Origin: Dictyostelium discoideum
Lineage: Eukaryota
NCBI GenBank assembly: GCA_000004695.1
Contig: CM000151.3
Location: 7,040,001-7,104,000 of the forward strand
DNA: 64,000 nt
Direction: 5' to 3'
Under the pieces are notes generated by a model. The model was not told where the DNA came from. It made no database searches and saw only the letters and a list, made by a program, of their open reading frames with translations. A program made the position numbers and the translations under genes. Positions within the stretch are counted from its first letter, which is position 1; each line of letters starts with the position of its first letter. Below, piece by piece: positions 10,812 through 40,847 of this stretch.

Positions 10812-10850
<39 letters not shown>

Positions 10851-11389
10851 GAAAAATAAAAAACTTTCTGATGGCTCAGGAGAATTATTTGAAAAAATGG
10901 TCACCCAATTTTTTTTTTCATTTTTTTTTTTTTTTTTTTTTTTTTTGATTATTTTTTAGTTCAAAAAAAATAAAAAAAAATAAAAGTGATTGTGGATTAT
11001 ATTAAAAGAAATTCATATGGTTCGTTTACCTATATTTTTCAAATAATGTCAAAAGGAAAAAAAAAATATAAAAAAAAAAATAAAAAAATAAAAAAAAAAG
11101 GAAAATTATTATACAACAAATTGTTTTTTTTTTATTTATTATTAAATTACAGTTGAGAGATTATAAATAAATATATATAAATAATTTTTTTTTTTTTTTT
11201 TTTTTTAAGATTTTTTATCTCTTTTGTATTTTTTTTTTTTTTTTTTTTTGACAATTATTTGAGTTTTTCTTTTTTTGGATTTTTTTTTTTTTTCTGGATT
11301 TTTTTTTTTTTTTTTTTTTTTTTTTGGAAAACCAAAAATATTCAATTATTGATTTTTTTTTTTTTTGTTTTGTTTTGTTTTGTTTTTTT

Positions 11390-11879
11390 TTATTCATCAT
11401 CGTCATCAGCAACCATATCACTATGATCATGAGCTGTTGGTTTATAAGGTTTTTTGGATGCGGCTTCATCTTCATCTTCTTCATCGTCGTCATCATCAGC
11501 GAAATCTTCTTTGTTGATAGTTGCAGCCAAGGTAGCTTGTTTAATTAAATCTTTCATTGTTGATGATTTTGCTAAATGAGTGACAGTTTGTTTTTGATTA
11601 TTTGTGATGGTTGGATTAGCACCATTTTCAATTAATAATTCAAACATTGGGATACGGTCATACCAAACTGCTTTGTGAAGTGGTGTTTCACCTGCTTTAT
11701 TTTGAATATTTGTATTTGCACCTGTTTCTAATAAGCGTTTGGAAACATCAATATGTCCAAATGTTGCACTATAATGTAATGGTGTATTTCCTAATGCATC
11801 AACAATATTGGCATCAAATTGATTCTTTTGTTTTCTTTGTTCAAAAAATTCTTCAAACATACTTATATAATTTCTAAAT

Positions 11880-11926
<47 letters not shown>

Positions 11927-12039
11927 AATTAATAAATTAACTTTAAAAAAAAGGTAAAAAAATAAAGTTTTATAAAAATAAATTACTTTTTTGCTGCAGT
12001 GAAAAGAACTTCATCTTCAAAATAATCTTCTTCTGACAT
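11390..12039 (-). CDS. Ankyrin-repeat protein with acidic C-terminal tail. Main exon 11390..11861; probable 5' exon 11987..12039 (MSEEDYFEDEVLFTAAK, GTAATT donor).
   Basis: ANK motifs GNTPLHYSATFGH and GETPLHKAV. C-terminus DDDDDEEDEDE. The 5' exon is an inference. Confidence 0.55.
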
Positions 12040-12358
12040 TTTTTTTTTTTTATTATTTGTTTTTAATTAATAAATTCTCTTTGGGTAATAGGAGTGGAAA
12101 TTTTTGATAAGAATTTTGAAAAAAAAAAAAAATTGATCAATAAGTGATTTTTTTTTTTCACAAATTAAAATAAAAAAAAAAATAATAAAAAAAAAAATAA
12201 AAAAAAAATAAAAAAAATTAAAAAAAAAAAAAAAAAAAAAAAAAGAAAATGGGTTTTTTTTTTTTTTTTTTTCTAATTATTTGAATACAAATATTTATCA
12301 AGATTTTTGTCCATGATCATGTCCTTTGTTTTTTTTATTTCATTTTTATTATTTCTTT

Positions 12359-12398
<40 letters not shown>

Positions 12399-12665
12399 AT
12401 AACAAAAAATAAAAAAAATAAAAAAAATAAAAATAAAAAATGAAATTAAATAGAAAATAGAAAATAAAATAAAAAAGTAATAACTAAAATAAATAAAACA
12501 AATGGTTAATTGGAAAACAAAATAAAATTAAAAAATAAAAATAAAAATATAACACAAGAGTGCTTCATCAGAACTTTTTTATTTTATTTTTTTTAATTTT
12601 TTATAATTTTTTTCAAAAAAATTTTTTTTGATTTTTTTTTTCGTGTTAATCTCGACTGATTAAAT

Positions 12666-12703
<38 letters not shown>

Positions 12704-13640
12704 TTCTTCGTTTTGTACAATAATAAACCTATTTATATATATTTATCTCTTTATTTTCAACTTTAAAATTGTTTTTGAACATCTTTTTTTTTTTTTATAT
12801 AAATTTTTAATCTCAAAAAAAAAAAGTATGTGTTGAAATCCACTTTTTTTTATTTTTGGATTATTTTAAAAAAAAAAAAAAATCAAGAATAATTTATACC
12901 AAACATATTTTATCACCCACTTTTTATATATATTTTTTTTTTTTTGGTAACCACCATTGCAGAAAATCACTTTTTAAAAACATTTTTCCTTTTTTTATTT
13001 AATTTACAAACAGAAAGAAAAAAAAAAAAAAAAAAAAATTAATGTTTAAAAAAAATAAATAGAGTGTTATTTTAATACATTTACATTTTATACCTCGTTC
13101 ATAAAATATCCATGTTAGATTTACAAACAGATTTTTTTTTTTCAAAAAAGGGGTTCCATTTAAAAAAAAGATTAATAATAATGAAAAAAAATGGATAAAC
13201 TTCGTTATTATTGTTTTGTTTTATTTTATTTTTTTTATATAATTTAAAACAAGTAGGGTTTTTTTTAATTTTTTTTTTTTTTCTTTGTAATAATAAACTG
13301 TTTTTTAATTTTTTTTTTTTATTATTTCTTTTTTTTTTTTTTTTTTTTTTAGTTTAATCAAAAAGTTGTTTTATAAACATTGTTTTGGAATTGGGCAGTG
13401 ATTTTTATTTTTCCCCAAGATAAATCAAAAAAATAATAAAAATAAAATATTTTATAAATATATTTATTAATAATTTCAATTTATTTTATAAAATAGGTAT
13501 TTTTAATTTAAAAACAAACGAAATAAATTAATTTATATATAATAGTAATAATAATAATAAAAGAAATTTCAAAAAAAGGTCAAATAAATCTTTCAAATAA
13601 TAAAATTAACAAAAAATAAAATAATAATTAAAATAAAAGA

Positions 13641-15221
13641 ATGATTAGAATTGGTTCAAATTTAATTAAACAAAGTATTAAAAACACAAATAAAAGTGGT
13701 ATTTCAAGATTTTTTACAACAGGATCAAATAATAGTACCAATTATAAACCAGAATCATGTGTTAAAGAAGAACCAAAAGGTAAGAGTGTTAATGTCGAAG
13801 ATTTAAAAGACCAAGAGATTATTGCATTAGTTGACAAGGGTGAAATCCAACCACATAATTTGGAAACTAGACTTCCAAATAACTTTCAAAGAGCAGTTCA
13901 CATTAGAAGAAAATTATTAGCAAGAGATCTTCAAAAGGAACATCAAAGAGCACTTCACGCACAAGCAGTTGTTGCAGCAGCAGAGAAAGCAGCAACCAGC
14001 GGTGAAGATCCATCAAGCATTCAACCAGTTGTCCCACCAACATCAAATTTAGATTTTGAAGGTTCATTAACCAACTTACCAGTTGATCATTTCGATTACA
14101 CCAAAGTTTTAGGTGCCTGTTGTGAAAATGTAATTGGTTACATTCCAATTCCAGTTGGTGTTGCAGGTCCAATCCTTTTAGATGGTAAATTAGTTTCAAT
14201 TCCAATGGCAACCACTGAAGGTTGTTTAGTTGCATCAACTCATAGAGGTGCTAAAGCCATCACTAAATCTGGTGGTGCTAAAACTGTACTCTTACAAAGC
14301 GGTATGACTCGTGCACCAGTTTGTCGTTTACCATCATCCATTCGTGCTGGTGAACTTAAACAATGGATTGAAAATCAAGAGAACTTTTATCAAGTTGCCT
14401 CTGCATTCAACTCTACAAGTAGATTCGCTCGTTTAAAGAGTATTAAAGTTGTGATTGCAGGTAGACTCGTTTACCTTCGTTTCAAATCTTCCACTGGTGA
14501 TGCTATGGGTATGAATATGGTTAGCAAAGGTGTTGAAAAAGCCCTCGAAGTCATCACTGAATACTTCCCAGAGATGGAAGTTCTCTCATTGAGTGGTAAT
14601 GTTTGTACTGATAAGAAACCATCATCAATCAATTGGTTAGAAGGTCGTGGTAAGAGTGTAGTCGCCGAAGCTGTCATCTCTGGTGATATCGTTAGAGATG
14701 TACTTAAAACCACAGTCGAAGCTTTAGTATCACTCAACATTGATAAGAATTTAATTGGTTCCGCTATGGCTGGTTCCATTGGTGGTTTCAATGCTCACGC
14801 TTCAAACATTGTCACTGCTCTCTACATTGCCACTGGTCAAGATCCAGCTCAAAATGTTGAATCTTCAAATTGTATTACCCTCATGGAAAGTATCAATGGT
14901 GGTAAAGATCTTTACATCTCTGTCACTATGCCATCTATTGAAGTTGGTACTGTTGGTGGTGGTACACATTTACCAGCTCAATCCGCTTGTCTCGATCTCT
15001 TAAAGATTCGTGGTGCCAATCTCGAACGTCCAGGTGCAAACTCTGAACAATTAGCTCGTGTCGTTGCCGCCGCTGTGCTCTCTGGTGAATTATCACTTAT
15101 GAGTGCTCTCGCCGCTGGCCATTTAGTACGTTCTCACTTGAAACATAATCGTAAAACTGAAGCTCCTGCTCCACAAGCTGATACAATTTCGATGACTCAT
15201 AATTTACCACATTCTGATTAA
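13641..15221 (+). CDS. hmgA: 3-hydroxy-3-methylglutaryl-CoA reductase (526 aa, single exon).
   Basis: Catalytic motifs [26 protein letters not shown], and the C-terminal His region. Symbol assignment is tentative (hmgA versus hmgB). Confidence 0.85.
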
Positions 15222-15347
15222 AAAAAAAAAAAAATCCATGGATTAAATCCATAATTTTAAAAATAAACTTTAAGTAATAATAATAATTTTATATTTTCAT
15301 AAATTTATATATATATATCTTATTTGTTTTTTATTTTATGTTGTTGT

Positions 15348-24365: not shown

Positions 24366-25121
24366 TTTTTTTTTTAAATAAATAAAAATTAATAAACATA
24401 TATGATCATATTAAATTTGATATCAATTTTTGGTCTATTTTTAGGTTTTATTTTAATGTATATAATCATATTGTCTTTTTTTTTTTTTGGGTCTTTTTTT
24501 TTTGTGGGTTAGGTTTTATTTTAATTTTATTTTAATTTTATTTTTTTACTTTTTTTTTAATTGTTTTATTATTTTTGTTTAATTATTATTTTTTGATGGC
24601 AGATAATTGTTTTTTTTTTTATTTTTTTATTATTTTTTTTTTCAATTTGGGAAACTATCTACTATTAAAAAATAATAATAATTAAAAGTTAAATCTGTTA
24701 ATAAAAAAATTCTAAGGTGGTGGGGATCAAAAAGATCTTTTTTTATTAATTTATTTCTGGTGAATATTAAAAAAAAAAAAAAAAAAAAAACAAAAAACAA
24801 AAAACAAAATAAAAATGCACCAAGTAGGTCACTAAACAGAAAATTTGCTACAAATTAATGATTCTTATACTTAATTTAAAAGGGTCTTTTAATCTCATTT
24901 CGAAAGTTGGTAAGTGAAAATGAATGGGAAGAAATTTACTAAAAAAAATAAAAAATATAAAAATAAAAAAAAATTTAAAAAAAAAAATAAGTATAAATAA
25001 AGTTTTTTTTTTTTTTTTTTTTTTTTTCAAAAAATTAACATTTAATCATCTCAAGAAATAAGTAAAAATAAAAGTTCAATTAAACTTAAAAAAAAAAAAA
25101 AATTTCAATCAATCTAAAAAA

Positions 25122-25377
25122 ATGTTATTCAGTATGTTTTATTTTTTTTTTTAATTTTTTAAAATTATATTAAATGTTGTAGGGAATTTTCCATAAAATT
25201 TCACTACAGTAGCGTAGTGAATTTTATTATTTAATTTCACTACAGTAGCGTAGTGAAAAAAAAAAATCACTGACCTTAAATTTTTTTTTTTTTCAAAAAA
25301 CAAATAAAGTTTATTAAATTGAAATTTTATTTTTTGTTTTAATTATTATTTTATTTATTTTTATTATAATTATTGTT

Positions 25378-25410
<33 letters not shown>

Positions 25411-28329
25411 CAATTTTTTTTTTTTAAATTTTTTTCAATTTTTATTTGTTTATTAAAATGTAATTTTATTTTTTGTTTTAATTATTATTTTATTTATTAT
25501 TATTGTTAATTTTTTTTTTTTTTCAATTTTTTTTTTTTTAATTTATTTTTATTAATTTATTTTTATTAACTCCCTGAGTTGTTCAATTGCTTGATTTACC
25601 ATATCACTGTAAACACTGCACACAATTGAATTTTTTCTAGCTTTGTTACCTCTGGTGCATTTGATGTTTTTGCATTTTCCTTTGTATACAAAAAAGTCCA
25701 AATATAATTCGTTTTCTATTACAGTTTTTACACAATGTTGGTGAAATTGTTTTGATTTTAATTCTAATGCTTCTAACATCATATTTGAATTTTTAACGAT
25801 TAAAGCATCACCACTATTTACATATAGTACTTTGGCTGCTTTTTCGAGGAATTTAGTCAAATTTTCCTCTGAATCTAACTATTCTTCATTGCCATATTCA
25901 ATGGCTAAATTTCTTAAGAGTTTTATCGAATCTATTAATTCTTCGATCATTCTTTTTTTTTGAAATTTTTTTTTATTTTGTTTTTTCAATTTTTTTTTTT
26001 TATTTTGTTTTTTCAATTTTTTTTAAGTTTTATTTTTTTTTATTTTTTTTTATTTTTTTTAACAAATGTAATTTTTTTTTATTTTTTTCAATTTTTTTTT
26101 TTTTTAATTTTTAATTTTTTTTTTTTTTTTTAATTTTTTGTGTTGATTTGTGTTTTTTTTGTTTTTTTGATTTGGCCACTTGTTTTTATTTTCTAATTTC
26201 CCCATACCCCCTTCTATTAATTGCAACCAAATCAAGTTCTAATTTTTGTGTCCTTGTTGACTTTGTTTTTGCAACTTTTTTTGAAGGTATCACATTAACG
26301 ATTTTTCCTATTGATGGTGATTTGGAAGGTGATTTAAATGGTGATTTAAATGGTGAATTGGAAGGTGATTTAAATGGTGAATTGGAAGGTGAAATGGATG
26401 GTGATTTGGAAGGTAATTTAAATGGTGATTTGGAAGGTGATTTAAATGGTGATTTAAATGGTGAATTGGAAGGTGAAATGGATGTTGATTTGAGAGGTGA
26501 TTTGGATGTTGATTTGAGAGGTGATTTGGATGGTTTAGAATGTGATTTTAAAGGAGGTTTATTAACAATTGGTATCTTATGAGGACGGCCTCTGAGACGT
26601 TTAACAGTTGTTACTATACCACTACCAGATTGTGGTATAGTATATGATGGTATTATTTGCACTTGAGGTATTGGTGGTACTATTTCTTTTAAATTCATAT
26701 CCTTTCTCAAACAATTCATTAAATTTGGCGCTGTTGGATTATTATTTAAAAATGGGAGTATTTCTTCTTGTTCCATTTCATTATTGAGTTTGTGTTGAAA
26801 TGGATTATCGTTAATGATAGGTGGAATATTTGATGGATTGTTAAGAGCATCTTCCAAAACCCTAAATGGATCATTTTGTGTTACCAATTGATGCAAGTTG
26901 AAATTGGATAAATCCTTACCAAGATTTTTAATAAACTGAACCAGAAATTCAATAACTTTCCCATCATTATTTAAATAAAGACCAGAAGTAAAAGAATCAA
27001 TATCTTTTTGTATGTTTGGCGATGTTCTAAAAATATCAACTGTTGATTGTTTATAAAGAACCAACTTGTTACCTCCTACAAAACCAGAGTATAAACCTTT
27101 TTTTTGAAGGCTATTGATTCCATCTTCCAAAAATTCAAGTTTATAAAGTTGTTTAGTGTCTTCCTGTATTACCTTATGAATTTTACACAAAATCAATATT
27201 TTCTATTAGAATTAAATATAAAATTTGTTAATTATTACTGTTTCATATATTATTAATCTTTATGTTTTAATTACTTACATTATTTTTTTTAATTTCTAGA
27301 AAGAGTACAGTATCACCAACTTTCAATCCCTTTGGTGGTTTTGAATTCCATTGATTTTGGTAACTTGTGAGATTTTCAAGAATAATAGCTGTTCTTTCTT
27401 CTTTTGAAACATCTGAAACACCAATTGATTGAGAGTCTTGTTCTGATTGAACATTAATAAACAAAGGAACAATACCAACAGCTTGAGATGGTGTCATTTT
27501 AATTGTTCTTGTTTTTGTATTATTGTAATCATACAAAGCTTGTTTTAATAGTTCAGAAAGAGACCTAGAAGTACCATCAAGAAAACTAAAATTTATTTAT
27601 AAATGATTAATTAATAAACATATCGATAATTTATATTGTTCAAAATATCATACTCTTGTTGTTTTAATTTTGAGATCCTCTCCTTGATAGTTCGATTCAA
27701 TCTTTCTACCATACCTTGAGTTGTTGGTGTACGAGGAGCTCCATGTGCTGACTTGGAGCCTGGAAAAAGTTTTAGGAATTCTTTTTGGACTTTGTTTTTA
27801 AATTCACGTCCATTATCGCAGTGCCATACTTTCACAGAGTTTTAATATAAAAGTTACAAAACATCATATAAAAAATGATTGATACCAAACCTTTTATTCT
27901 ATTTCGTTGGCAAATGTCACACGTATCTACTGCATCAGATACAAAAGAATACAATCCCATATTATAATATTTAGTCTTGTAGTTCCCATAGGTTGCATCT
28001 CTTCCTATATGACCTTTATGCATTTCTTCCCAGAGTGATACCATTCTATAATCATTAATTACTTCTAAACACACTTCTTTTGATATATTTCTATCTCCGC
28101 CACAATTCATGACTTTTTTTTCAATTCTAAATAATTTTTCTTTTCTGTTTCTGTTTTTTATTGGTCAGAATTTAAAAAATGATTGTGTTATGGTAAGGAA
28201 AAATATTTACTCATCATGTAAAAATTTATAATTTTTATGTTTAGTATTTTCAAAATTATTATCTTCAATAAATTTTAAATAATTTATAATTTCATTTATT
28301 TTATCTTGTTTCATTTTGGGAAAATGAAA

Positions 28330-28364
<35 letters not shown>

Positions 28365-28837
28365 TGTTGGGGAAAAAAAAAAAAAATTTTGGCGCAAAAA
28401 AAAAAAAAAAAAATAAAATAAAAAAAAAAAAAAATAAAATAAAAAAAAAAAAATAAAAAAACTTAAATAGAACTAATAATCAAATAAAAGATAATAATTT
28501 AATAAACTTTATTTGTTTTTTGAAAAAAAAAAAAATTTAGGGTCAGTGATTTTTTTTTTTCACTACGCTACTGTAGTGAAATTAAATAATAAAATTCACT
28601 ACGCTACTGTAGTGAAATTTTATTGAAAATTCCCTACAACATTAAATATTAATTTTTTTTATTTTAATTTTTATATTAGAATCATTAATTTCCATTTCAT
28701 TCGAATCATCAGAAGTATCCTCAAACTTTGCTCAATTAAATAATGGTGTCTGTTTTTCTTCATGTAAAAGTGCAATTGAATTAAAAAGCAGTCAAACATC
28801 AACATTCTTTACAAGACCAAATTTCTATCATATTTAA
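25122..28837 (+). CDS. Small-family gene T. Exon 1 25122..25131 (ATGTTATTCA); the intron is split by the transposon insertion; exon 2 28680..28837. MLFKSLISISFESSEVSSNFAQLNNGVCFSSCKSAIELKSSQTSTFFTRPNFYHI.
   Basis: Exon 1 plus GTATGT lie 45 nt before the left TIR. Acceptor tattag lies 38 nt after the right TIR. Exon 2 is in frame with a diverged tail. Probably inactivated. Confidence 0.5.
25175..25320. repeat. Left terminal inverted repeat of the DDT-A-like element; contains two copies of the sub-terminal palindromic motif CACTACAGTAGCGTAGTGA.
   Basis: Reverse complement matches 28496..28641. Confidence 0.8.
25552..28313 (-). CDS. Transposase (retroviral-integrase-like; zinc finger, DDE core, C-terminal basic SPxK repeats), split by short introns. 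Exon fragments about 28214..28313 (possible first exon), 27832..28110, 27611..27835, 27267..27536, 26186..27196, 25552..25937.
   Basis: HKGHIGRDATYGN…CDICQRN (HHCC). WHCDNGREF…GAPRTPTTQGMVERLNRTIKE (rve-like). RGRPHK plus KSPSKSPFKSP repeats. Exact exon joins not resolved. Confidence 0.6.
26320..26530. repeat. ~15-bp tandem repeat (ggtgatttaaatggt-like, ~14 copies) inside the transposase 3' region. Encodes S-P-(F/L)-K-S repeats on the minus strand.
   Basis: Direct reading. Mirrored as GDLNG repeats in the antisense track ORF 26148..26582. Confidence 0.7.
28496..28641. repeat. Right terminal inverted repeat of the DDT-A-like element.
   Basis: Reverse complement of 25175..25320. Confidence 0.8.
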
Positions 28838-28951
28838 AGACCAAACTGAATTATTCATTAAAAATTGTCCGACATATAAATAATCCACACCATTAAATAA
28901 AATAAAATTTTTTTATATTTGATTTTTTAAATACACCTTAAAAAAACAAAT

Positions 28952-28995
<44 letters not shown>

Positions 28996-29334
28996 CCTTA
29001 ATCTAAATTAATTATATAAAATTGATATCATTATAAAAATAAAGATATATTTTATATATTTATTTAATATCATTATTTTAATTATTAAGTAAGGTATTAA
29101 ATCTGTATCCAAAATCACCAAAAACACCAAATCGGAATTGGGGGGAGAGACAAGGGTTTTTCACGTGTTTTTAATTTTAAAAAAAAAAAAAAAAAAAAAA
29201 TATTAATTGATGTTTATATGTATATTAATTTGTTTTTTTATTAATTTTTTTCAAGTATGGGATCGGCCTTTGAAATAATTATTTTTAATTCGATTTTATT
29301 GTTTTTTTTTTTTTTCCCAGTTTTTTTTTTAATT

Positions 29335-29630
29335 TTAATAATTAATAAAATTTGGTCTGGTAAAGAAAGCTGTTCTCTTTAATGCACATTCAACATTTGT
29401 TGAGTAGTTAGAATCAAAGATTGAATTTTCCATAAAATCACGTGATGTATTTTTTGATTCGTTTGTTTTTGATAATAAAATTAATGATTCTATTTAATAA
29501 AATGAAATAATTATATTATTATAAAAAAATAATTATTATTATTATATTTTTTTTTTTTTATTCTTTTTTCTGTATTTTTTTACTATAAAACTAGGTTCTA
29601 ACATGTTGTTATTTACATACTTAATAACAT
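29335..29630 (-). CDS. Small-family gene F. Exon 1 29621..29630 (ATGTTATTAA), exon 2 29335..29489. MLLKSLILLSKTNESKNTSRDFMENSIFDSNYSTNVECALKRTAFFTRPNFINY.
   Basis: Splice and frame verified. Threonine codon ACC in place of ACA in the motif is a synonymous change. Confidence 0.55.
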
Positions 29631-30219
29631 TTTTTTTTAAAGGATTTTATTTAATTTAATTATTAAAATTAAAATTGTGATTTTTTTTTTTATTTTTTTT
29701 TTTTTTTCTTGACAAAAACTATTTATACTGATTTTTTTTTTTTTTTTTTTTTATAATTACCACATTTTCATCTTTAACCACATACATATAAAATTTGTAA
29801 ATAATTTTTTGTTTCTATTTTTAACAAAATTGTTTTTTTGGGTTTATTTTGACTACTTCTTAATAGATTTAAATTTTATTCCAATAAATTATATAGAATA
29901 ACAATAACTAGAAACATACAAATTCACATCTAAAATTAATTATTTCATTCCTTTTTTGAAATTTGAATATGTTTTATTTGAATTTAATAATAGTTTTTAT
30001 AATATAGTAATATTTAAGTTACAATGAGCAGAAATGCTTTTAAAATTTAATGAAATTTTAAAAAATAAAAAAATAAATGGGAAAAAAAAAAAAAAAATTG
30101 TTTTTAAAAGTTATTTATTTTTTTTATACTGTTTTATTTTTATTGTTTTTTTAAATCAAGTAAAATGTCGGCCTTGAATTAATTTTTTTGTTTAAATTTT
30201 TTTAGTTAACTTTTTCTTT

Positions 30220-30520
30220 TTAAAAGTTAATAAAGTTTGGTCTTGTAAAGAATGTTGAAGTACTTTTAATTGAGGTAATAAAATTTATGGATTCATTTGT
30301 TTTTTTATTTAAATCATTTGAAAAAGAAATCGTAGTTTCAATGTTTGTATTTTTTAAAGAAATTAATGATTCTATAATATTTAAAAAAATAAAAATAATA
30401 AATATTAATAATCAGAACTTGATTTTTTTTTTTTTTATTTTTTTTATTTTTTTTATTTTTTATTTTATTTTATTTTTTTTTATTTTATTTTATTTTTTTC
30501 AAAAACATACTTAATAACAT
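30220..30520 (-). CDS. Small-family gene G. Exon 1 30511..30520, exon 2 30220..30371. MLLKSLISLKNTNIETTISFSNDLNKKTNESINFITSIKSTSTFFTRPNFINF.
   Basis: Splice and frame verified. Confidence 0.55.
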
Positions 30521-31149
30521 TTTTTATTTGTTTATATATTTTTTTATTTTATTTGATTTGATTTTAATTTTTTTTTTTATTGTTCTATTTATATTTTTTT
30601 TTTTTATTTTTTTATTTTTTTTTTTATTTTTAAAAAATTTGTTTTTCATTTTTACTTTATTTATTTATTTTTAGCACACTTCACTCTACACACTACACAA
30701 TAAACAAATAAATAATTTTGTAAAAAGATTGTTGGTGCCATTTTTTTTTTTTTTACTCTTTTTTAAAAATTTTAATGTTATCGAAATATAATATAATTAT
30801 AAAAAATAGATTTAATTGTATTGTTAATAATAGATAGTTTTTAATAGTAATTTGTATAGAATCAACATTTAATAAATAATTTAATTTTATATGTTGTTAT
30901 ATAAAATATATAGATAAAATCAAGATCAAATGAAGTGCATTCAATTATTTCATATCATTCAATTTCTTCTTTTGCTTAAATAAAAAAAAAATAATAAAAA
31001 AAAAAAAAAAAAAAACATGTACATTCAATGTATTATTTCATAATCCAATTCTATATAATTTTTTAATATAGGATTGCCATCATTAATTTTAAACCATTTT
31101 TAAATATAAAATTAACAAGACACATATATCGATATCTTTCCCAAATAAG

Positions 31150-31207
<58 letters not shown>

Positions 31208-32163
31208 ATCTTTAATCCAATTTTTATTTTATTTTAACAATAAACAAATAAAAATAAAAATATTGGTAATATAGTTAAATTTAATTTCTTTACTTAAGTT
31301 TTTCCAAAATAAAATAAAAATAAAAATTTTAAAAATTCTTTCATTTTTTGGATTAATTTTAAAAATAAAAGAATAATGGCACCAAAGAATTTCTTATTTT
31401 TTTAATTTTTATTATTTTAATTATTTTTAATAATTTAATAATTTTTTGGAATAAAGAACATCGAAAATATTGTGTTTAAAACAAACTATGAATCTCCTTT
31501 ATTGCATTTATATAGATATCTCTTTTTATGTACACTAATAAAAATAATTCTTTTACTTTTAATTAAAAGTTTTATTTGATTATTTAGACAATAATGATCT
31601 GATAAATTGAATTTTGGTTCATTTCAAATATAATTAAAATAAAAGGAAACTTCAATGGTCTTGTGGTGGGTTATTGTTTTTTTAGTGTTAGATTTTGGGG
31701 TTTATTTTTAATTTTTTTTTTTTTTTTTTTATTCATTTATTTTTATTATTTTTTTTTTTTTATTTTTAATGTTTTTTTTCATATTATTAATAAAATTAAA
31801 AACCTATCTATTAGTAAAAGGAATTTTATCAGCAATTATTAGGGACATCAAATCTCACCAATGTTCTTTTTAAAGTTTAATTTAACAACAACCCACAATT
31901 TACAAATTTTTATATGATCATATTTTAATGTTGAACAAATAATTATTATTATTATTATTTTTTTTCTAGAAGAGGGTTAAACAAATAAATAAATAAAAAT
32001 AAAAATAAATAAAAATAAAAAAAAAAAAAATAATTAAAAATAAAAAATCTGGTAAAAAAAAAAAAACTATAAATATTTTTTTTTTTTTTTTTATATAAAG
32101 CATTAAACAAATCGAAAAAAACTAAATTTTTAACTATAAAAAAAATTAAATTTAAAAAAAAAA

Positions 32164-32186
32164 ATGTTAGCAAGTAAGTGTCTAAA

Positions 32187-32225
<39 letters not shown>

Positions 32226-32417
32226 AATCTAACTTTATCCTTTTTTTAATTAGAATCATTAATCTTCTCTAAAAACTCATCAAAGGCAGACAAAATTTTT
32301 TCAAATGATAAATTGACTGTTACTTCTTTTTCTTTAAATGCCACTTGCGAAAAAATTTCAGCTTCAACTACAACTTCTACCTCTATTTTTACAAGACCAA
32401 ATTTCTTGAACTACTAA
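32164..32417 (+). CDS. Small-family gene Ha. Exon 1 32164..32173 (ATGTTAGCAA, GTAAGT donor), exon 2 32254..32417. MLAKSLIFSKNSSKADKIFSNDKLTVTSFSLNATCEKISASTTTSTSIFTRPNFLNY.
   Basis: Splice and frame verified. Convergent with H. Confidence 0.55.
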
Positions 32418-32783
32418 AAAAAATATATAAATAAACTAAATATATTGGCCGACTATAAATTTAAAATTCTAATTTTAATTGTTTGTTTGTTTTTTTTTTT
32501 TAATAAATTTACCAATAATTTTATTAATTTAAATGATTTTATTAATTTAAATGATTTTCCTTTTAAAATTAAAAAAAAAACAATTTCATTTCTAATTAAT
32601 TTTTTTTATTAATTTTTTTTTTTCAAACCCTCCATTACCTTTTACTAAAAAAAAAAAAAAAAAAAAATTATCTTATTTTGGTTTTAATATATGTACATGT
32701 TTTTTTATTATTTATTTAAATATACAGTTTTTATATCAAGTATTTGTCGGCCTTGATATTTTATATTATTTTTTTATAAAATT

Positions 32784-33031
32784 TTAAAAATTTAAAAAAT
32801 TTGGTCTTGTAAAAAAAGAAGTTGCGTTCTTAATTGAAACAATTTCATTTTTTGAAAAGTTATTTAAAGGTGTTTCACTATGGATACAGTTTAATGAAGA
32901 TGAGTTTGTTTTGTTTGAAATTGAAATTAATGATTCTAAAATAATAATAAAAAAAAAATTAGAAATTATGTTTTGGAAAAAAGAAAAAAAATTGTTTTAA
33001 TATTCATTGCATTATACATACTTAATAACAT
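32784..33031 (-). CDS. Small-family gene H. Exon 1 33022..33031, exon 2 32784..32935. MLLKSLISISNKTNSSSLNCIHSETPLNNFSKNEIVSIKNATSFFTRPNFLNF.
   Basis: Splice and frame verified. Promoter module at 33140-33330 on the minus strand. Confidence 0.55.
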
Positions 33032-33555
33032 TTTATTATTTTTTTATATAGTTTTTTTATTTATTTCTAAATTTAGAATTTTTGTTTTATTTAAAATGAT
33101 TTTTTAATTAATAATGAATTATTTTTTTTAAACTATTTATATTTTTTTTTTTTTTTTAAGTAAAAGTATTCAAAAACCACTTTTATCTGTTAAATAATAA
33201 AATTTAAAAAATAATTGAACAGATGTTGTCGACATACACACACTCTCAATATAAAAATAGTGTTATCACAAACTTTAAAAGAAGTATGTGCGAATAGATT
33301 TTATTTAATATAGAATCATAAAACCAAAATGATATTTTTTATATATTGATTTTAAAAATAAAAAAAGCAATTTATTATTTTTAATAAATGAAGAAATAAA
33401 TTTAATTAATAAATAAATAATTTAAAAGGGTTGGTTTAAAAAATAAAATAATTATTTAATATGAACCAAAATTAAAAAATGAATTAATTTTGAATTTTTA
33501 TTGGAATAATTGAGTATACATATATTTTTAATTGAATATTAATAAAAGTGAAAAT

Positions 33556-33655
33556 NNNNNNNNNNNNNNNNNNNNNNNNNNNNNNNNNNNNNNNNNNNNN
33601 NNNNNNNNNNNNNNNNNNNNNNNNNNNNNNNNNNNNNNNNNNNNNNNNNNNNNNN
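33556..33655. other. Assembly gap (100 N).
   Basis: Run of n. Confidence 1.
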
Positions 33656-33879
33656 ATGTCATCATTTGTATTTTTAATTTATAGTGTCATTTTTAGATAT
33701 TCTTTTTTTTTTTTTTCAATTAAAACTGAAATTGTATGTTTATATATATCAGTGTTTTATTTGAAATAAAAAAATAATAATAATAAATGAAGTAAAAATA
33801 TTCAAACCACTTGTTGATGATATCCATTATTTAAGTAATCATTGTTGAAAACATATATTTGATATTGTTGTTGTCAAAA

Positions 33880-34257
33880 AAAAAATTAATATGATTTCAA
33901 CAAGATTAATAAAATAGTTTAAATTATATTATTATTCTTGTTGATATCATTATCCTTGTTTTTTTGTTTTTAAAAACAATTGTCTTTACTTGTATGTCAA
34001 CATAATATTTTTACAAAATTTAAACAATTAATAAAATTGTGTGTTTATTAAATAGTGGTGGTGGTAGGAAGTGGTTGGGGTGGGGTGGTGGGAAGTGGTT
34101 AAATTTTACTTAAAATAATTATTTCGATTTAAAAAATAAAATAGAATTTAAAAAAAAGTATAAATACTTTTTTTTAATTTTATTTTTTATATCAAACAAA
34201 CATTAAATTAAAAACAAAACAAAAACATTAATTAAAAACTATGAAACTATAAATAAA
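33880..34257 (+). promoter_or_regulatory. Conserved family promoter module, example for gene Ia. Elements TTGTTGATATCAT, TTGTATGTCAACATAATATTTTTACAAA, a G/T-rich GTGGTGG block, ATTATTTCGATTT, the TATA-like AGTATAAATAC, and TTTTTATATCAAACAAA just before the ATG.
   Basis: Alignable with 37230-37583 (Ka), 40190-40606 (M), and in reverse complement with 1950-2250 (A), 33140-33330 (H), 35270-35460 (I), 38930-39070 (K). Confidence 0.5.
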
Positions 34258-34497
34258 ATGTTATTCAGTATGTATTTTTAATAAAAAAAACAATGAAAAT
34301 ATCAATGAATATAATATTAATTTAATATTTTTTTTTTAAATTTAGAATCATTAATTTCATTATCAAATAAAAATACCACCTTAAATTCATCTTTAATTTC
34401 AAATCAAACAAACAATGATTGTAATGAATTTAAAAATGAAATTACAAACAAAAGTTCTACTGCATTCTTTACAAGACCAAACTTTGTAAACTATTAA
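34258..34497 (+). CDS. Small-family gene Ia. Exon 1 34258..34267, exon 2 34346..34497. MLFKSLISLSNKNTTLNSSLISNQTNNDCNEFKNEITNKSSTAFFTRPNFVNY.
   Basis: Splice and frame verified. Exon 2 is identical to Ka. Confidence 0.6.
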
Positions 34498-34584
34498 AAA
34501 AAAATATTATGATAAAAACAATTCCGATAAAAAACTTGTACAAACAATAAAATCTATTTATTTATTTATTTATTTATTTTAAAA

Positions 34585-34632
<48 letters not shown>

Positions 34633-34944
34633 CCTTGAGTGATTTTTAAAGTTGGTTTTAAATTAATTTTTTAAAACTATTGATTTTTTGATATTTTATC
34701 TTTATTAATATGTCTCCTTTGGATTTTATTATTTGCCCACTTTTTCATTTATAAAAGTAATTCGTTTTTTTATCAAATTTTACATAATTTTAAAATTTTT
34801 TTTTTTGTCAAACTTTTCCACAAATAAATAAAGAAAAAACAGAAAAATTATTTTTTAATTTTAAATAAATATATAAATATATTTTTTTTTTTAAATGTAC
34901 AATTTGTTTATCGGTATTAAAATTTTTTTTTTTTTTTTTTTTTT

Positions 34945-35189
34945 TTAATAGTTTATAAAGTTTGGTCTAGTAAAGAATGCAGTAGAACTTATGTTTGTAA
35001 TTTCATTTTTTAATTGATTACAATCATTGTTTGGTTGATAAGAAATTAAAGATGATTTTGAGGTGGTATTTTTATTTGATAATAAAATTAATGATTCTAA
35101 AAAAAAAAAAAAAAAATTCAAAATTAAAATCAACTTCATTATAATATATTTTTAATTATAATTTTTAAAATATACCTACTGAATAACAT
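34945..35189 (-). CDS. Small-family gene I. Exon 1 35180..35189 (GTAGGT donor), exon 2 34945..35096. MLFKSLILLSNKNTTSKSSLISYQPNNDCNQLKNEITNISSTAFFTRPNFINY.
   Basis: Track ORF 34945..35139 covers exon 2. Splice and frame verified. Confidence 0.6.
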
Positions 35190-35705
35190 TTTTTATTTTT
35201 ATAGTTTTATATTTAGTTTTTTAAGATTTTATAATGTTAACTTTGTTCGATATAATAAATTAAAAAAAAAAAAAAGTATTTATACTGTTTTTTAAATCGA
35301 AATAATTAAGTAAAATTTAGATAAACACCCACAACCACCACCACTATAGCACATTTTTTTAAAAATTATGTAAAATGATTATGTTGATATACAAGTAAAC
35401 AGTAAAAAAAAAACAAGTATAATGATATCAACAAGAATAATAGTTTAATTTATTAACAACATTTTAAAAATATGTTTCCAACATCCATTTTTTTAAAAAA
35501 GGACTTAAAATTTTATTTAATTAATTAAAAAAATAATACAATAAAATTGTTTACAACAAAATTTAATTTTAATTTTTATGATTATTTAAAAAAGAAAAAA
35601 ATAAATGATAATTTGTAAAAAAAAAAATAAAAAATTAATTCTAATTATCTAGAATAATTTATTTTACAATAGTTTTTTTAATAAAAAAAGTTATTTGGTT
35701 GTTTT

Positions 35706-35745
<40 letters not shown>

Positions 35746-35936
35746 AAGCTAAATTGAATTATTTATTTAAAAACCTTTTTTGAACTAATTATAATAATAA
35801 AAATCAAAATAGCTAAACTATTTCACTCAAAAAAAAAAAAAAATGAAAATAATTTTTAAATTTTTTAAATAAATAAATAAATAGTTTTTTATTTGTACAA
35901 GTTTTTGTCGGCAATATAATTTTTTCAATAATTTTT

Positions 35937-36085
35937 TTAATAGTTTACAAAGTTTGGTCTTGTAAAAAATGCAGTAGAACTTTTACTTGCAATTTCATTT
36001 TTGAATTCAATGCAATTATTATTTAATTGATTTGAAATTAATGATTTTGAGGTGGTGTTGTTATTTGATAATGAAATTAATGATT
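35937..36085 (-). CDS. Small-family gene J, exon 2 only; the intron and exon 1 run into the gap. …KSLISLSNNNTTSKSLISNQLNNNCIEFKNEIASKSSTAFFTRPNFVNY.
   Basis: Frame verified. Confidence 0.5.
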
Positions 36086-36119
36086 CTAATAAATAAAAAA
36101 AAAAAAAAAAATAAGTATA

Positions 36120-36219
36120 NNNNNNNNNNNNNNNNNNNNNNNNNNNNNNNNNNNNNNNNNNNNNNNNNNNNNNNNNNNNNNNNNNNNNNNNNNNNNNNNN
36201 NNNNNNNNNNNNNNNNNNN
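36120..36219. other. Assembly gap (100 N).
   Basis: Run of n. Confidence 1.
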
Positions 36220-37583
36220 ATAAATCATTTTATTTCATATTTATGTTTAAAATATGTACATGAAATCACAATAAACAAAACAACACCTATGTTTAATGAT
36301 TGTTTAAAAATTGTTGATTTAAGAAATGATTTGTATTGATTCTAATAAATTAAAATTTTAACCACAAAATAAAATCCTACCACAATTTATTCTTCCATTC
36401 CTTCTACTATACCCTAACCTATTTAATTATATATTCTAGAATTTGAATTTATTGTAAAATAGTGTTTATACTCCACCAACAAAAAGGATTTAAAAACTAT
36501 TTTAAAAATCATAAAGCTTTAAAACAAAATGTTTGAAATTATTATTTTAAAAGGTTTGGAAAAAAAAGAAAAGAAAAGAAAAAAGAAAATGATATTATTT
36601 ATTAAAAAGAAAAAAACAAAAAAACAAAAAAAGAAACAAACTAAATCAAAATAAACCAATTTAGAATATAATTAATTTCTTGTTTTTCTTTTTTTTTTCC
36701 AAACTTTTAAATTTAGAAAATAATTGATTTCTTGTTTTTCTTTTTTTTTTTAGAATCGCTGGTGTATTTATTTTTTTAATTATTTTATTTTTTGATTTTG
36801 TTTTAATTTATTTCTCTTTAATTTTACTTTTTTTTCGAGTTGCTGATAGCTATGCTATTTATTTTTATTTTATTTTACTTTTACCATTTCTCTTTTATTT
36901 TGTTCTTTTTTTTTTTTAATGAATTTTTTTTTTTTCATTGTTTTAAAAACTTTTAAAAATGAAAAAAAGTATAGGAAAAATGAGAATCATAAAAAACAGG
37001 ATGATGAATAAGTTTTGATCACTTATATTTTTTAAAATATAGTGCATTTTTACATGACATATTATTATATTTTTTAAATTTGAATTGAAAAATTATATAA
37101 ATGAAGAAAAAAAATGAAAATTAATTAATGATGATATCAATTTTAAAACAATGATTGTTGAAAACATACAATATTTATGATTTTTATATGGTAGTTGAAG
37201 AAAATTATTGATTAAAAAAATTATTATCTATTAATAAAAAGGTTTTAAATTATATTATTATTCTTGTTGATATCATTTTGCTTGGCTTAATTTTATATTA
37301 ACATTTAACTTTACTTGTATGTCAACATAATATTTTTACAAATTTTAATTTATTTAATTTATTAAATAATTGTGTGTTTATTAAGTAGTGGTGGAGGGGG
37401 GTGGGTGGTTGTGAGTGTGTGATTAAATTAATTATAACTAAAAATTATTTCGATTTTAAAATTAAAAAAAAAAACAGTATAAATACTTTTTTTAATTTTA
37501 ATTTTTTATATCAAACAAAAATCATTAATTAAAAACTAAAGTTAAATAAATTAAAAACTATAAAAAAAAAATATATTTATAAA

Positions 37584-37839
37584 ATGTTATTCAGTATGTA
37601 TTTTTTTTTTTATTTTTTTATTAGAATTATTTTTTAAAAATATCAATGAATTTAATATTAATTTAATATTTTTTTTTTTAAATTTAGAATCATTAATTTC
37701 ATTATCAAATAAAAATACCACCTTAAATTCATCTTTAATTTCAAATCAAACAAACAATGATTGTAATGAATTTAAAAATGAAATTACAAACAAAAGTTCT
37801 ACTGCATTCTTTACAAGACCAAACTTTGTAAACTATTAA
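37584..37839 (+). CDS. Small-family gene Ka. Exon 1 37584..37593, exon 2 37688..37839. Product identical to Ia.
   Basis: Splice and frame verified. Promoter 37230-37583 is paralogous to 33880-34257. Confidence 0.6.
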
Positions 37840-38493
37840 AAAAAAAAATAATATGATATAAACAATGCCGATAAAAAACTTGTATATTTAATAAAAAAAA
37901 TTAATTATTTATTTATTTATTTATTTAAAAATAAAACCAAATTTTTTATTTTTTTATTTTTTTTTTTTTATTTTTTTTTTTATTTTTTTGAACATTTTCT
38001 ATCCTGACCCTGCAAATATAGCACCAAAAAAAAAAATTTAATTCAAAAAAAATAAATTTAAATAAAATTAAATGTTTTTTGAACTTCGTTTTTTTTTTTA
38101 TTTTATATAAATTTTTTTTTTTTTTGGGTACTTTTGTTCACTTTTTTCTTTTTATTTTTATACTTAAAATCTTTCAAAAAAAAAAGAAAAAACAAAAATT
38201 GATCAAATAATGAACTTAATATATTTCTTACCAAAAAATAAATAATAATAATAATAATAACGATAAAAATAATACTCAGTTCTTATTTTACATATGTAAC
38301 CTTTTTATTTTTTTAGATAATTTGTCATAATTATTATTTTTATTATTATTATTTAAAGTTTAAAAAAAAAAAAAGAAAAAAAAAAAAAATTTTAGTTTTT
38401 TTAATTAAGTTTTGTTTATTAATTTTAATTTATTTTACAAGTAAAGTTCGGCCATGTAAATTTATATATATATATAAAGTTTTTCGTTTTTTT

Positions 38494-38736
38494 TTAATAA
38501 TTTACAAAATTTGGTCTTGTGAAAAAGGCAGTTGGACTCTTCATTGTAATAGAATTATTTGTAGTACTAATTGAATTTATATTATTAGATTCAATTGAAC
38601 TTGATAATGATGATGAATTTTTGTTTGATAATGAAAGTAAAGATTCTATTTAAAAAAAAAAAAGTAAATTAATTAATACAATGACTTTAAAAATTTTTTT
38701 TTTTTTTTTTTTTTTTTTCAACTTACTGAATAACAT
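38494..38736 (-). CDS. Small-family gene K. Exon 1 38727..38736, exon 2 38494..38645. MLFKSLLSLSNKNSSSLSSSIESNNINSISTTNNSITMKSPTAFFTRPNFVNY.
   Basis: Splice and frame verified. Confidence 0.55.
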
Positions 38737-39601
38737 TTTAAATTATAGTATATTAATATAGTTTTTATATTTGTTTTTTTATTTATTTAATTAATAAAAT
38801 TTTTTTTTAATGATTAAAATAATTTTTTTTTTTTTTATTTATACTTTTTTTTTTATTTTTAGTTTAAACATTTAATATAACCCCCAAAAAACCACTTAAT
38901 AACACTAATAACAAATTTGTAAAATAGATGTTGTCGACATACATGTGTTTTAAAAATTAAAAGGTTTTTTTGATAAACACACACACATTAAAAGAAGAGA
39001 TTTTATTATTTTAATTAAAAGATAATTTTAAAAAATGTAGATATGGTATCAACATCATTTTCTTTTTGACAAAAATAAAAATAATTATTTTAAATTTTAA
39101 TTTTTAATGATTATATAATTATTTACCCGCTCATTGATCACTATTTTTTTCCAAATAATTGTTATCATCATTTTTAAAATCAATTTTCTTCTTTTATAAG
39201 TTTTTTATTTTATTTTTATAATAATTTTAATTTTCTTAAGGAGTATTAATATGGATATAATAACAATATAATTGATTTTTAAAGTAAATCAAGTAAAATA
39301 AAAATAACAAAATTTCTTCATTTACTTTATTTATTTTAAAAATAAAAAGGTTTTTTATTTAATTTTAAAAAATTATAACATCATCCTTTTTTAAAATAAA
39401 AGAAGATAAAAATGATGAAATTATTTTATTATTTTTTACTTAATGATGTATTATCTTAGGGGACATCAAATTGAGAAAAAAAAAAAAAAATTATTTAAAT
39501 TAAAAATTTTATTCTTTTTTTTTTTTTTTTTTTTTTCTTTCCTTAAATTTATATAAAAACTTAAAAACTAGAACTTCTAAAAATAAATAAAAGAAATTAA
39601 A

Positions 39602-39843
39602 ATGCTATTTGGTATGTTAAAATTAATTTTATATAATTGGTTGATATTTATTTATTAATATTTTAAATTTTAGAATCAATTAAATTAAACATAAAAATAA
39701 ATAATTCTTTAAATGAATGTTCAAATTTATTAATTAGTGAAAATAATAAACATTCATTATATATTAATTCATTAAATACAATTACAACTAGAAATCAAAC
39801 TAGTAGCTTTTTTTTTTCTAGACCAAATTTCCAATGTTTTTAA
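39602..39843 (+). CDS. Small-family gene L, divergent. Exon 1 39602..39611 (ATGCTATTTG), exon 2 39674..39843. MLFESIKLNIKINNSLNECSNLLISENNKHSLYINSLNTITTRNQTSSFFFSRPNFQCF.
   Basis: Splice and frame verified. The promoter does not align with the others. Confidence 0.45.
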
Positions 39844-40309
39844 AAATAGATAACTAATTGTTAATTTACATTAAGAATAATTGTTCGAATAACTCAATAT
39901 TTAATTATTATTATGAATTAAATCATTTTTAATTTTAGAAAAAATAATAATTTATAAAAAAAATAGTAAAAATAAAAAATAAATTATTATTATTAAATTT
40001 CCAAAATCATACTTCATTTTTTTGATAATAACAATAATAATTATTTTGACAAAAAAAAAAAAAAAAAAATTGATAATTATTTCTTTTTGATAAACAAAAA
40101 TTAAAGTTGATATCAATAAATTTATTAGCCGGACAATTATTCAATATATTTTAAAAAATCAAATATCTAAAATATAAATCTTGATTTTAATAAATGTTGA
40201 TATCATACATATTATTTCTGCTTCTCATATAAATTTAAAAATAGCAACATATTCAATTTACAAATATATTTTATTTTTCAATCTATAGATTTATCAATTT
40301 TTTATTTTT

Positions 40310-40349
<40 letters not shown>

Positions 40350-40606
40350 ACCCATAGTAAAGAAGGGGTCAATTTTTAATTATCAAGTTATACGATTATT
40401 TCTATTTTAATTTTTATTTTATTTTTATTTTTATTTATTATTTTACTTTAATCAAAAAAAAAAAAAAAAAAAAAGTAAATATAAATAGTATTTTTTTTTT
40501 TTAAAAAAATAAATACTTAAAAATAAATCACAAATCAAAACATTAATTAATATAAATTATTAAAAAAAAAAAAAGAAAAATATTAAAAAAATAAATATAT
40601 TTTAAA

Positions 40607-40847
40607 ATGTTATTCAGTATGTATTTTAAATTAATTTTATTTCATTGTAAATTATAAATAATAAATATTAATTATTTTTATTTTTTTTTTTAAAATAGAA
40701 TCATTAATTTCATTATCAAACAATGTTTCAAAAGTTTCAACATTAATTTCAGTTGAAAACAATGAAAATTCTATAAATACTACAACAAATACTATAACAT
40801 TAAGAAGCACAGTCTTCTTTACAAGACCAAATTTTATTAATTATTAA
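40607..40847 (+). CDS. Small-family gene M. Exon 1 40607..40616, exon 2 40699..40847. MLFKSLISLSNNVSKVSTLISVENNENSINTTTNTITLRSTVFFTRPNFINY.
   Basis: Splice and frame verified. Confidence 0.55.

Follow-up and report, generated by a model that had tools for sequence, protein, structure and literature searches.

A family of short FFTRPNF-tailed genes on chromosome 2 of Dictyostelium discoideum, very probably coding and under purifying selection, and its probable link to hssA/sigN

The window analysed here is a stretch of 64,000 nucleotides (nt) of chromosome 2 of Dictyostelium discoideum AX4 (contig CM000151.3, positions 7,040,001 to 7,104,000) and contains an amplified family of very short two-exon genes, called FFTRPNF genes after the motif near the C-terminus of their products. 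On chromosome 2 of D. discoideum the family numbers about 30 genes. Judged from the pattern of substitutions, these genes are very probably protein-coding and under purifying selection. The leader of the peptides and the mini-exon that encodes its start are most like those of the hssA/2C/7E/sigN genes, and the family is probably a divergent hssA/sigN branch or shares its 5' module. The genes are not new: they are annotated, their proteins being undescribed as far as could be found. The gain is the definition of the family, its selection profile, its synteny across species and its architectural link to hssA/sigN.

Copies were counted with the degenerate tail pattern TTYTTYACNAGRCCNAAYTTY, allowing up to 2 mismatches, against shuffled sequence; 18 matches were obtained in the window and 0.18 were expected from the shuffles. 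A nucleotide profile of the whole unit recovered the same 18 together with the detached 5' half of copy T (24972-25142) and a remnant at 59929-59984. Of the total of 18 copies and one remnant, five lie at 1.7-6.7 kb, 12 in the interval 25-41 kb and one, with the remnant, at 60 kb, in agreement with the 19 copies listed in a previous reading made from the letters of the window (the sequence-only reading). Fourteen copies have complete two-exon models with peptides of 49-59 amino acids (aa), and copies B, C and J are interrupted by assembly gaps of 100 N. The copies are the following:

1687-1946, minus strand: copy A (exon 1 1937-1946, exon 2 1687-1847), complete, 56 aa, identical to DDB_G0276595/DDB_G0276605
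4161-4284, minus strand: copy B, 3' part of exon 2 alone, next to the gap 4285-4384
4395-4546, plus strand: copy C, exon 2 alone with exon 1 in the gap, DDB_G0276649 (partial)
5093-5343, minus strand: copy D, complete, 54 aa, DDB_G0276619
6443-6688, plus strand: copy E, complete, 55 aa, DDB_G0276621
25122-25131, plus strand: copy T exon 1 (ATGTTATTCA), with a transposon between it and exon 2
28680-28837, plus strand: copy T exon 2, tail FFTRPNFYHI
29335-29630, minus strand: copy F, complete, 54 aa, DDB_G0276641
30220-30520, minus strand: copy G, complete, 53 aa, DDB_G0276639
32164-32417, plus strand: copy Ha, complete, 57 aa, DDB_G0276637
32784-33031, minus strand: copy H, complete, 53 aa, DDB_G0276635
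34258-34497, plus strand: copy Ia, complete, 53 aa, DDB_G0276613
34945-35189, minus strand: copy I, complete, 53 aa, exact product absent from the protein collection (the copy may be unannotated)
35937-36085, minus strand: copy J, exon 2 alone, exon 1 in or beyond the gap 36120-36219
37584-37839, plus strand: copy Ka, complete, 53 aa, DDB_G0276707, same peptide as copy Ia
38494-38736, minus strand: copy K, complete, 53 aa, DDB_G0276651
39602-39843, plus strand: copy L, complete, divergent (ATGCTATTTG, tail FFSRPNFQCF), 59 aa, DDB_G0276653
40607-40847, plus strand: copy M, complete, 52 aa, DDB_G0276655
59929-59984, minus strand: decayed tail remnant (…FSGPKFLNF and stop), found with the nucleotide profile
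60465-60695, minus strand: copy N, complete, 49 aa, DDB_G0276669

Two weak nhmmer matches, at 24610-24831 and 36565-36762, were rejected as promoter-like low-complexity A/T sequence.

The 14 complete models share a single architecture, which bears out the two-exon design proposed from the sequence. Exon 1 has 10 nt (ATGTTAnnnA, in the context AAA-ATG-TTA-nnn-A) and was identified as ATGTTATTCA in six copies, ATGTTATTAA in three, and ATGTTAGCAA, ATGTTATTTA, ATGTTACTTA, ATGCTATTTG and ATGATATTTA in one each. The intron is of phase 1 and 62-139 nt, with the donor GTA(T/A/G)G and the acceptor TAG followed by A(A/T)TC; exon 2 has 140-170 nt, and the modelled exon-exon junction is ATGTTAnnnA joined to AATCATTA. 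A scan of both strands that ignored the family and asked only for ATG plus 7 nt, an intron of the form GTA..AG and an open reading frame (ORF) of at least 35 codons returned 13 candidates, 12 of them in the family. The "intron" of copy T reaches about 3.5 kb because a transposon with terminal inverted repeats (TIR) and an integrase is inserted there; in the D. firmibasis ortholog of this copy the intron is short and normal.

The peptides are formed by three modules. The first is a leader of 12 residues, M-L-F-K-S-L-I-S-L-S-N-K, with the phase-1 intron after MLF plus 1 nt. The second is a weakly constrained spacer of about 25-30 residues, rich in Ser, Asn, Thr, Ile and Lys; Ser accounts for 22% of this middle part, Asn for 18%, Thr and Ile for 10% each and Lys for 9%, with Gly at 0.3% and Cys at 1.8%. 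The third is the conserved C-terminal tail, (K/R)-S-[ST]-[ST]-x-[FY]-F-T-R-P-N-F-[VIL]-N-[YF]-COOH. The sequence-only reading had taken the whole of FFTRPNF(V/I/L)N(Y/F) as invariant; this holds for the core F-[TS]-R-P-N-F, the only constant part in the window, and fails for the rest, the variants being YFTRPNF, IFTRPNF, TFTRPNF, FFSRPNFQCF and FFTRPNFYHI. In 35 sequences from the sampled species, R(-7), P(-6) and F(-4), counted from the C-terminus, never vary, and 34 of the sequences have F(-9). Lys and Arg outnumber Asp and Glu in all the peptides. Cys, previously given as one or two per peptide, ranges from 0 to 2 and is not conserved. AlphaFold2, supplied with the family alignment, produced no fold (predicted local distance difference test, pLDDT, 63.6; predicted template modelling score, pTM, 0.14), and the peptides are predicted to be intrinsically disordered.

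A syntenic cluster was identified in D. firmibasis (CM069768.1), comprising 11 copies at 4872-15305 of the extracted stretch, placed between tRNase Z and NPC1 in the same order and orientation as in D. discoideum. Ten syntenic one-to-one ortholog pairs were obtained; D. firmibasis has an extra copy (f5), and copies F and J are found in AX4 only, which points to birth-and-death turnover. One of the 11 D. firmibasis copies, at 8884-9054 on the minus strand ("LELITSIHK…"), is without an AX4 counterpart and could match the AX4 gap at 33556-33655. The ratio of nonsynonymous to synonymous substitution (dN/dS) was calculated on the ten pairs by the pooled Nei-Gojobori method (NG86), which is crude in a genome this AT-rich; differences between regions can be relied on more than the values themselves:

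Tail, last 10 codons: dN/dS 0.10, dS 0.47
Leader, first 7 codons of exon 2: dN/dS 0.22, dS 0.40
Middle: dN/dS 0.47, dS 0.57
Whole peptide: dN/dS 0.37, dS 0.52

The values of dS are alike in the three regions, and leader and tail are therefore conserved as protein and not as RNA. The codons of the core F-T-R-P-N-F vary almost only at the third position (TTT/TTC, ACA/ACC/ACT, CCA/CCC, AAT/AAC), as the sequence-only reading had observed, and its proposal of purifying selection on a translated product agrees with the ratios, including the comparison of the tail with the middle (0.10 vs 0.47) that it had suggested. Exon 2 is equal in length or differs by a multiple of 3 in 8 of 9 ortholog pairs, the ninth (Ka/f8) being mis-parsed, and intron lengths vary freely between orthologs (139 vs 75 nt, for example). 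The 10-nt exon 1, the GT donor and the AG acceptor followed by AATCA are kept in the 9 of 9 D. firmibasis orthologs examined and in the D. purpureum homolog, in which ATGTTATTCA is followed by gtaagt, a 76-nt intron and, after ag, AATCATTAGTT. The middle, previously called hypervariable, is in this small sample best read as being under relaxed constraint and not under positive selection; relative to AX4, other D. discoideum strains carry changes of 1-3 residues, which fall exclusively in this part. An origin as transposon or retroelement fragments or as a non-coding repeat was rejected: there is no Pfam match, the overall dN/dS is 0.37 and the reading frame survives the changes in length. With such ratios, and with database relatives that are family proteins and not a known repeat or retroelement, the copies are therefore read as translated genes.

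The sequence-only reading did not recognise the family, yet exact-sequence look-up in NCBI and UniProt returned at least 14 window copies already annotated as "hypothetical protein" with identical splice models. Further paralogs on chromosome 2 are DDB_G0276599/609, 0276699-0276751, 0276467, 0275477 and 0275639/41. A Pfam scan of five peptides with E up to 10 gave only a spurious sub-threshold match to Emr1. A search of 1.84 billion representative proteins with the family profile retrieved 21 representatives; the sources of 16 of them were all D. discoideum, D. cf. discoideum, D. firmibasis or D. purpureum, and a D. citrinum member was found by a word-based search. The entry of the D. purpureum homolog is named "expressed protein". 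The family appears confined to group-4 Dictyostelium species by these searches, which agrees with the lineage restriction proposed before. The database relatives are all small family proteins or models fusing a family peptide to adjacent sequence. Two of the models, P0022 (D. firmibasis, 101 aa) and P0037 (D. discoideum ACTFIW_004353, 108 aa), run beyond FFTRPNF into "…TKFGLVK…" and are read as fusions with a convergent neighbour copy, because the extension is the reverse complement of the tail-coding TTTACAAAGTTTGGTCTTGTAAAA; P0004 and P0036 begin at an intronic ATG. The four were taken as annotation artefacts. In the full-text literature searched with the motif and 30 gene identifiers, no paper on the FFTRPNF motif or proteins was found, and the micropeptide and small open reading frame (smORF) literature on Dictyostelium contained nothing relevant. 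The sole match to the 30 identifiers is a G-quadruplex paper (PMC6511855) covering the promoters of DDB_G0276613 and DDB_G0276707.

The probable closest relative of the family is the hssA/2C/7E/sigN group, with the same mini-exon design; no relative had been recognised before. The group has some 96-100 genes, their products being shorter than 100 aa, with two sigN groups on chromosome 2, a first exon with a 13-nt ORF and members expressed in prestalk or cup (Vicente et al. 2008; Kin et al. 2018). In the genomic locus retrieved for an hssA-like gene, the 13-nt exon 1 is ATGACACTTTTTT, followed by the intron gtaagg…aag and CTTCAATCTCATCAATTTCAAATCCA, and encodes MTLF joined to SSISSISNP, exon 2 opening after ag with CTTCAATCTCATCAATTTCAAAT (SSISSISN). 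The FFTRPNF genes present ATGTTATTCA, the intron gtatgt…tag and AATCATTAATTTCATTATCAAATAAA, encoding MLF joined to KSLISLSNK. The phase of the intron and its position relative to "LF" are identical, the sole difference there being the extra Thr codon of hssA, and exon 2 starts in both with S-Φ-x-S-Φ-S-N (SSISSISN in hssA, KSLISLSN in FFTRPNF). Both groups encode products of less than 100 aa without a canonical signal peptide and both are tandemly amplified, the sigN clusters and most FFTRPNF genes being located on chromosome 2. They differ in length (49-59 aa in FFTRPNF vs 87-99 aa in hssA/sigN), in the Gly/Ser/Cys-rich body and C-terminal Cys cluster of hssA, which the FFTRPNF peptides lack, and in the FFTRPNFxN[YF] tail, which is unique to the FFTRPNF family and absent from hssA/sigN. 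Copy I aligned with an HssA/B-like protein (PF05710) by composition-adjusted BLASTP at E=2e-4, with 11 of 23 residues identical, in register and without gaps (residues 2-24/3-25). Composition-matched shuffles gave three members z scores against hssA of 6.2, 4.6 and 3.3, of which the 3.3 belongs to the D. purpureum member. The leader pattern had no other occurrence in the six-frame translation of the window. As judged by profile comparison, the family is not a member of PF05710.

The promoters of the family share several elements. In 12 of 14 complete copies the TATA element TATAAATA lies between -73 and -127 relative to the ATG, in ten of them at -95 to -110, and a G/T-rich box lies about 50-100 nt beyond it, near -150 to -200, in approximately half of the copies, both in D. 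discoideum and in D. firmibasis; D. purpureum presents a C-rich box beside the TATA. By resemblance, G/CA boxes of this sort are candidate elements of the GBF type known from post-aggregative genes. The combination of TATA and upstream G/T-rich boxes suggests regulated, probably developmental, transcription. Two of the G-rich boxes correspond to oligonucleotides p12 and p14, which form G-quadruplexes in vitro (PMC6511855):

34056-34075, plus strand: G-rich promoter box of DDB_G0276613 (oligonucleotide p12, PMC6511855), about 200 nt upstream of the ATG, chr2:7074056
about -99, plus strand: TATA box GTATAAATA in the upstream sequence of DDB_G0276613
37389-37409, plus strand: G-rich promoter box of DDB_G0276707 (oligonucleotide p14, PMC6511855), about 200 nt upstream, chr2:7077389

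The explanation preferred here is that the FFTRPNF family would be an offshoot of hssA/2C/7E/sigN that kept the leader and the mini-exon and swapped the Gly/Ser/Cys-rich body for the spacer and the FFTRPNF tail. The common leader would route the peptide like the SigN proteins, on a vesicular path with proposed secretion; the exposed C-terminal decapeptide would be a short linear motif docking onto one conserved partner, and the number of paralogs and the drift of the spacer would tune dose or timing, not specificity. As a whole statement, in which the parts shown above carry most of the weight, this account is held with a slight leaning in its favour. The mechanism taken separately, that is, leader plus motif on a vesicular or extracellular route, is put forward tentatively by analogy with SigN. 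An antibody to group-2 SigN disaggregated mounds, and deletions of sigN groups had no phenotype (Vicente et al. 2008). More speculative, and improbable, is that the leader M(T)LFxS-Φ-x-S-Φ-SN (12-24 residues, in all cases split by a phase-1 intron after "LF") would be a portable non-canonical module for targeting or secretion, delivering the decapeptide as an extracellular developmental signal. If so, a leader module would be common to two otherwise unrelated families, hssA/sigN (about 100 genes) and FFTRPNF (about 30), and the cluster would be a candidate source of a peptide factor that acts in Dictyostelium development and is not known to have been assigned a gene, such as SDF-1.

Several results weigh against this account. 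On the side of homology, the resemblance to hssA is based on about 23 low-complexity residues and the position of the intron: the other FFTRPNF paralogs gave non-significant shuffle z scores against hssA (0.2-2.6); hhalign aligned the conserved hssA N-terminus (MTLFSSISSISNPMTSSKSS…) with the FFTRPNF leader over 11 columns at P=0.052 and a probability of 1%; PF05710 ("Coiled") did not match the FFTRPNF peptides at E up to 10; and the family hidden Markov model (HMM) retrieved no hssA proteins among the 1.84 billion representatives. On the side of the route, the leader MLFKSLISLSNK is, by hydropathy, too polar for a canonical signal peptide, with Lys4 and Ser breaking the hydrophobicity and a maximum Kyte-Doolittle mean over 9 residues of 1.68 at the extreme N-terminus only; N-x-S/T sequons are not enriched (41 observed vs 40.7 ± 4.9 in composition-matched shuffles); and the secretion of SigN, proposed from staining in small vesicles, is itself unproven (Vicente et al. 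2008). On the side of expression, no cDNA-like spliced contigs encoding the exact peptides are on record, and no family identifiers were found in the searched supplements, among Glöckner 2016, Mef2A 2013, Strasser 2012, Parikh 2010 and Katoh-Kurasawa 2021. They were likewise not found in the cup, stalk and spore gene lists available from Kin 2018, where hssA-like genes are prominent in the cup and stalk lists; this absence is weak negative evidence on terminal cell-type specificity.

Among the other explanations, the one that survives best, although unlikely, is that the peptides are intracellular decoys or regulators, cytosolic or organellar microproteins whose FFTRPNF tail titrates a conserved intracellular protein. 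It agrees with the lack of signal peptide and sequon enrichment, with basic residues exceeding acidic ones in every peptide, with the predicted disorder and with the invariant R-P-x-F core, typical of a docking motif; in a variant of it, the leader, which is amphipathic, basic and free of acidic residues, could form a helix that targets membranes or mitochondria. However, the motif was identified in no other protein among 6 candidates with shared 5-mers, no partner motif being obviously mimicked, and the leader is like that of the vesicle-located SigN proteins.

Rather improbable is a diffusible peptide signal, in which the 10-15 C-terminal residues (e.g. SSTAFFTRPNFVNY) would be cleaved after the conserved Lys/Arg at about -15 and act between cells as a developmental factor, leader and spacer forming a pro-region. 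The extreme C-terminus is indeed the most conserved part and constraint on the spacer is weak; position -15 or so often holds a basic residue (K in 16 of 35 sequences), the dose would be raised by the many near-identical paralogs, and secretion is proposed for the SigN relatives; but there is no signal peptide, dibasic site or C-terminal Gly for amidation, and purifying selection acts on the leader (dN/dS 0.22), although a disposable pro-region would not require it. In precursors of the plant CLE/RGF/CEP type, a hydrophobic signal peptide is cleaved off and the sites of processing or modification are defined. The FFTRPNF genes are like them in being a multigene family of short precursors with a variable centre and a C-terminal block of 10-15 residues as the most conserved part; they are unlike them in lacking a signal peptide and sequon enrichment and in having the motif at the free C-terminus, and there is no homology.

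A function at the RNA level, in which the transcripts act or the conserved 15-mer ACAAGACCAAAYTTY works as an element of DNA or RNA, is disfavoured by the selection data and is very improbable. Action through the transcript has been proposed for hssA, a frame-shifted construct of which still suppressed the STATa-related defect (as summarised in Kin 2018), and the Val-type tail TTTACAAGACCAAACTTTGTAAA holds a 7-bp inverted repeat. The hairpin, however, is kept (at least 6 of 7 pairs) in 12 of 25 sequences without compensatory changes, tail and leader have dN/dS far below 1 with normal dS, the motif shows third-position wobble, and exon 2 changes in length in frame with introns varying. The selection data likewise disfavour a self-recognition, killer/immunity or greenbeard family with specificity in a middle under diversifying selection; the first two of these roles were suggested by the sequence-only reading, and the explanation is now very doubtful. 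Another of the roles suggested there, signalling, may apply. Tandem amplification, lineage restriction, the variable middle and the copy gains and losses between species (F and J in D. discoideum, f5 in D. firmibasis) would fit it, but dN/dS of the middle is 0.47 and not above 1, 10 copies keep a one-to-one order and orientation with D. firmibasis, no more than 1-3 residues separate the strains, and the ORF survey of the 25-41 kb cluster identified no paired receptor or immunity gene. The allorecognition genes tgrB1/tgrC1 of Dictyostelium encode large, highly polymorphic transmembrane proteins; they share with the FFTRPNF genes the organism and the character of a lineage-specific clustered family with relevance to development, whereas the FFTRPNF microproteins have about 53 aa, 1-3 differences among strains and dN/dS below 1. 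Hardly credible is the last alternative, precursors of ribosomally synthesised and post-translationally modified peptides with a variable core excised and modified and the invariant Pro as a prolyl-oligopeptidase site, which would suit the conserved ends, variable middle and gene amplification but not a "core" of 25-30 low-complexity S/N/T residues under mild purifying selection, a leader/core boundary without conserved Pro and a cluster without a linked processing-enzyme gene. The MSDIN precursors of Amanita, with a hypervariable core of 6-10 residues and Pro on both flanks, are also amplified and very short with conserved ends, a variable middle and an invariant Pro; the FFTRPNF middle differs in its approximately 25-30 low-complexity residues and its dN/dS of 0.47, and there is neither homology nor a linked processing enzyme.

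The development of Dictyostelium relies on secreted factors, and redundancy hampers the genetics of its small proteins, as in the sigN group deletions without phenotype. The FFTRPNF genes are a second microprotein family, with about 30 genes, selection at the protein level and an invariant C-terminal motif, defined as a family here for the first time as far as was found. The leader and mini-exon in common with hssA/sigN point to the leader as a functional module. The cluster of 16 kb is syntenic across species, and the reading "hypervariable, therefore arms-race" is not needed.

The window is very AT-rich (GC 14-33% in 2-kb windows). The neighbours of the family in it are two ependymin-like genes, a myosin I, hmgB (DDB_G0276615), tRNase Z (DDB_G0276531), an NPC1-like gene and a sulfate transporter, and the main cluster is compact (about 16 kb) and flanked by tRNase Z and NPC1. 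The sequence-only reading had described the 25-41 kb interval as containing essentially nothing else; no ORF of at least 110 aa was identified there outside the transposon in copy T, which is the part that the description missed. Gly/Cys-rich hssA-like genes were searched for within the window and none was found. The gene beiE (DDB_G0276687), on chromosome 2 but outside the window, is related to hssA/7E/2C, cup-specific and very strongly expressed, at 33,338 transcripts per million (TPM) in cup cells (Kin 2018 supplement); its identifier falls within the range of the FFTRPNF family, and an hssA-type gene may thus be located close to the FFTRPNF clusters.

Genes for 56-aa peptides alternate with two tandem ependymin-like genes of 246 aa (minus strand, 401-1141 and 2853-3593; PF25544, E=7.5e-63), and each ependymin-like gene with its peptide gene appears to form a co-amplified unit of about 2.4 kb. 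Further copies are found outside the window (DDB_G0276599/609/701/703/751). The three assembly gaps of 100 N (4285-4384, 33556-33655 and 36120-36219) are each in or adjoining family copies, and at 4161-4546 two partial copies are placed face to face across a gap; the number and arrangement of copies at the three gap regions is probably mis-assembled or underestimated in AX4.

The transposon is an insertion into the intron of copy T and is outside the FFTRPNF family:

25173-28643, minus strand: TIR DNA transposon; its inverted terminal repeats are about 90 nt long and its exons are of the integrase H2C2 and rve-like kinds

Its terminal repeats contain a duplicated "TTCACTACAGTAGCGTAGTGAA" palindrome and its integrase exons are interrupted by introns; presumably it is an element of the Tdd-4/Tdd-5 type, which it resembles. 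Within it, at 26290-26560, a 336-aa ORF of the minus strand includes the coding tandem repeat (SPSKSPFK)n, and an overlapping ORF of the plus strand reads (GDLEGDLNGELE)n.

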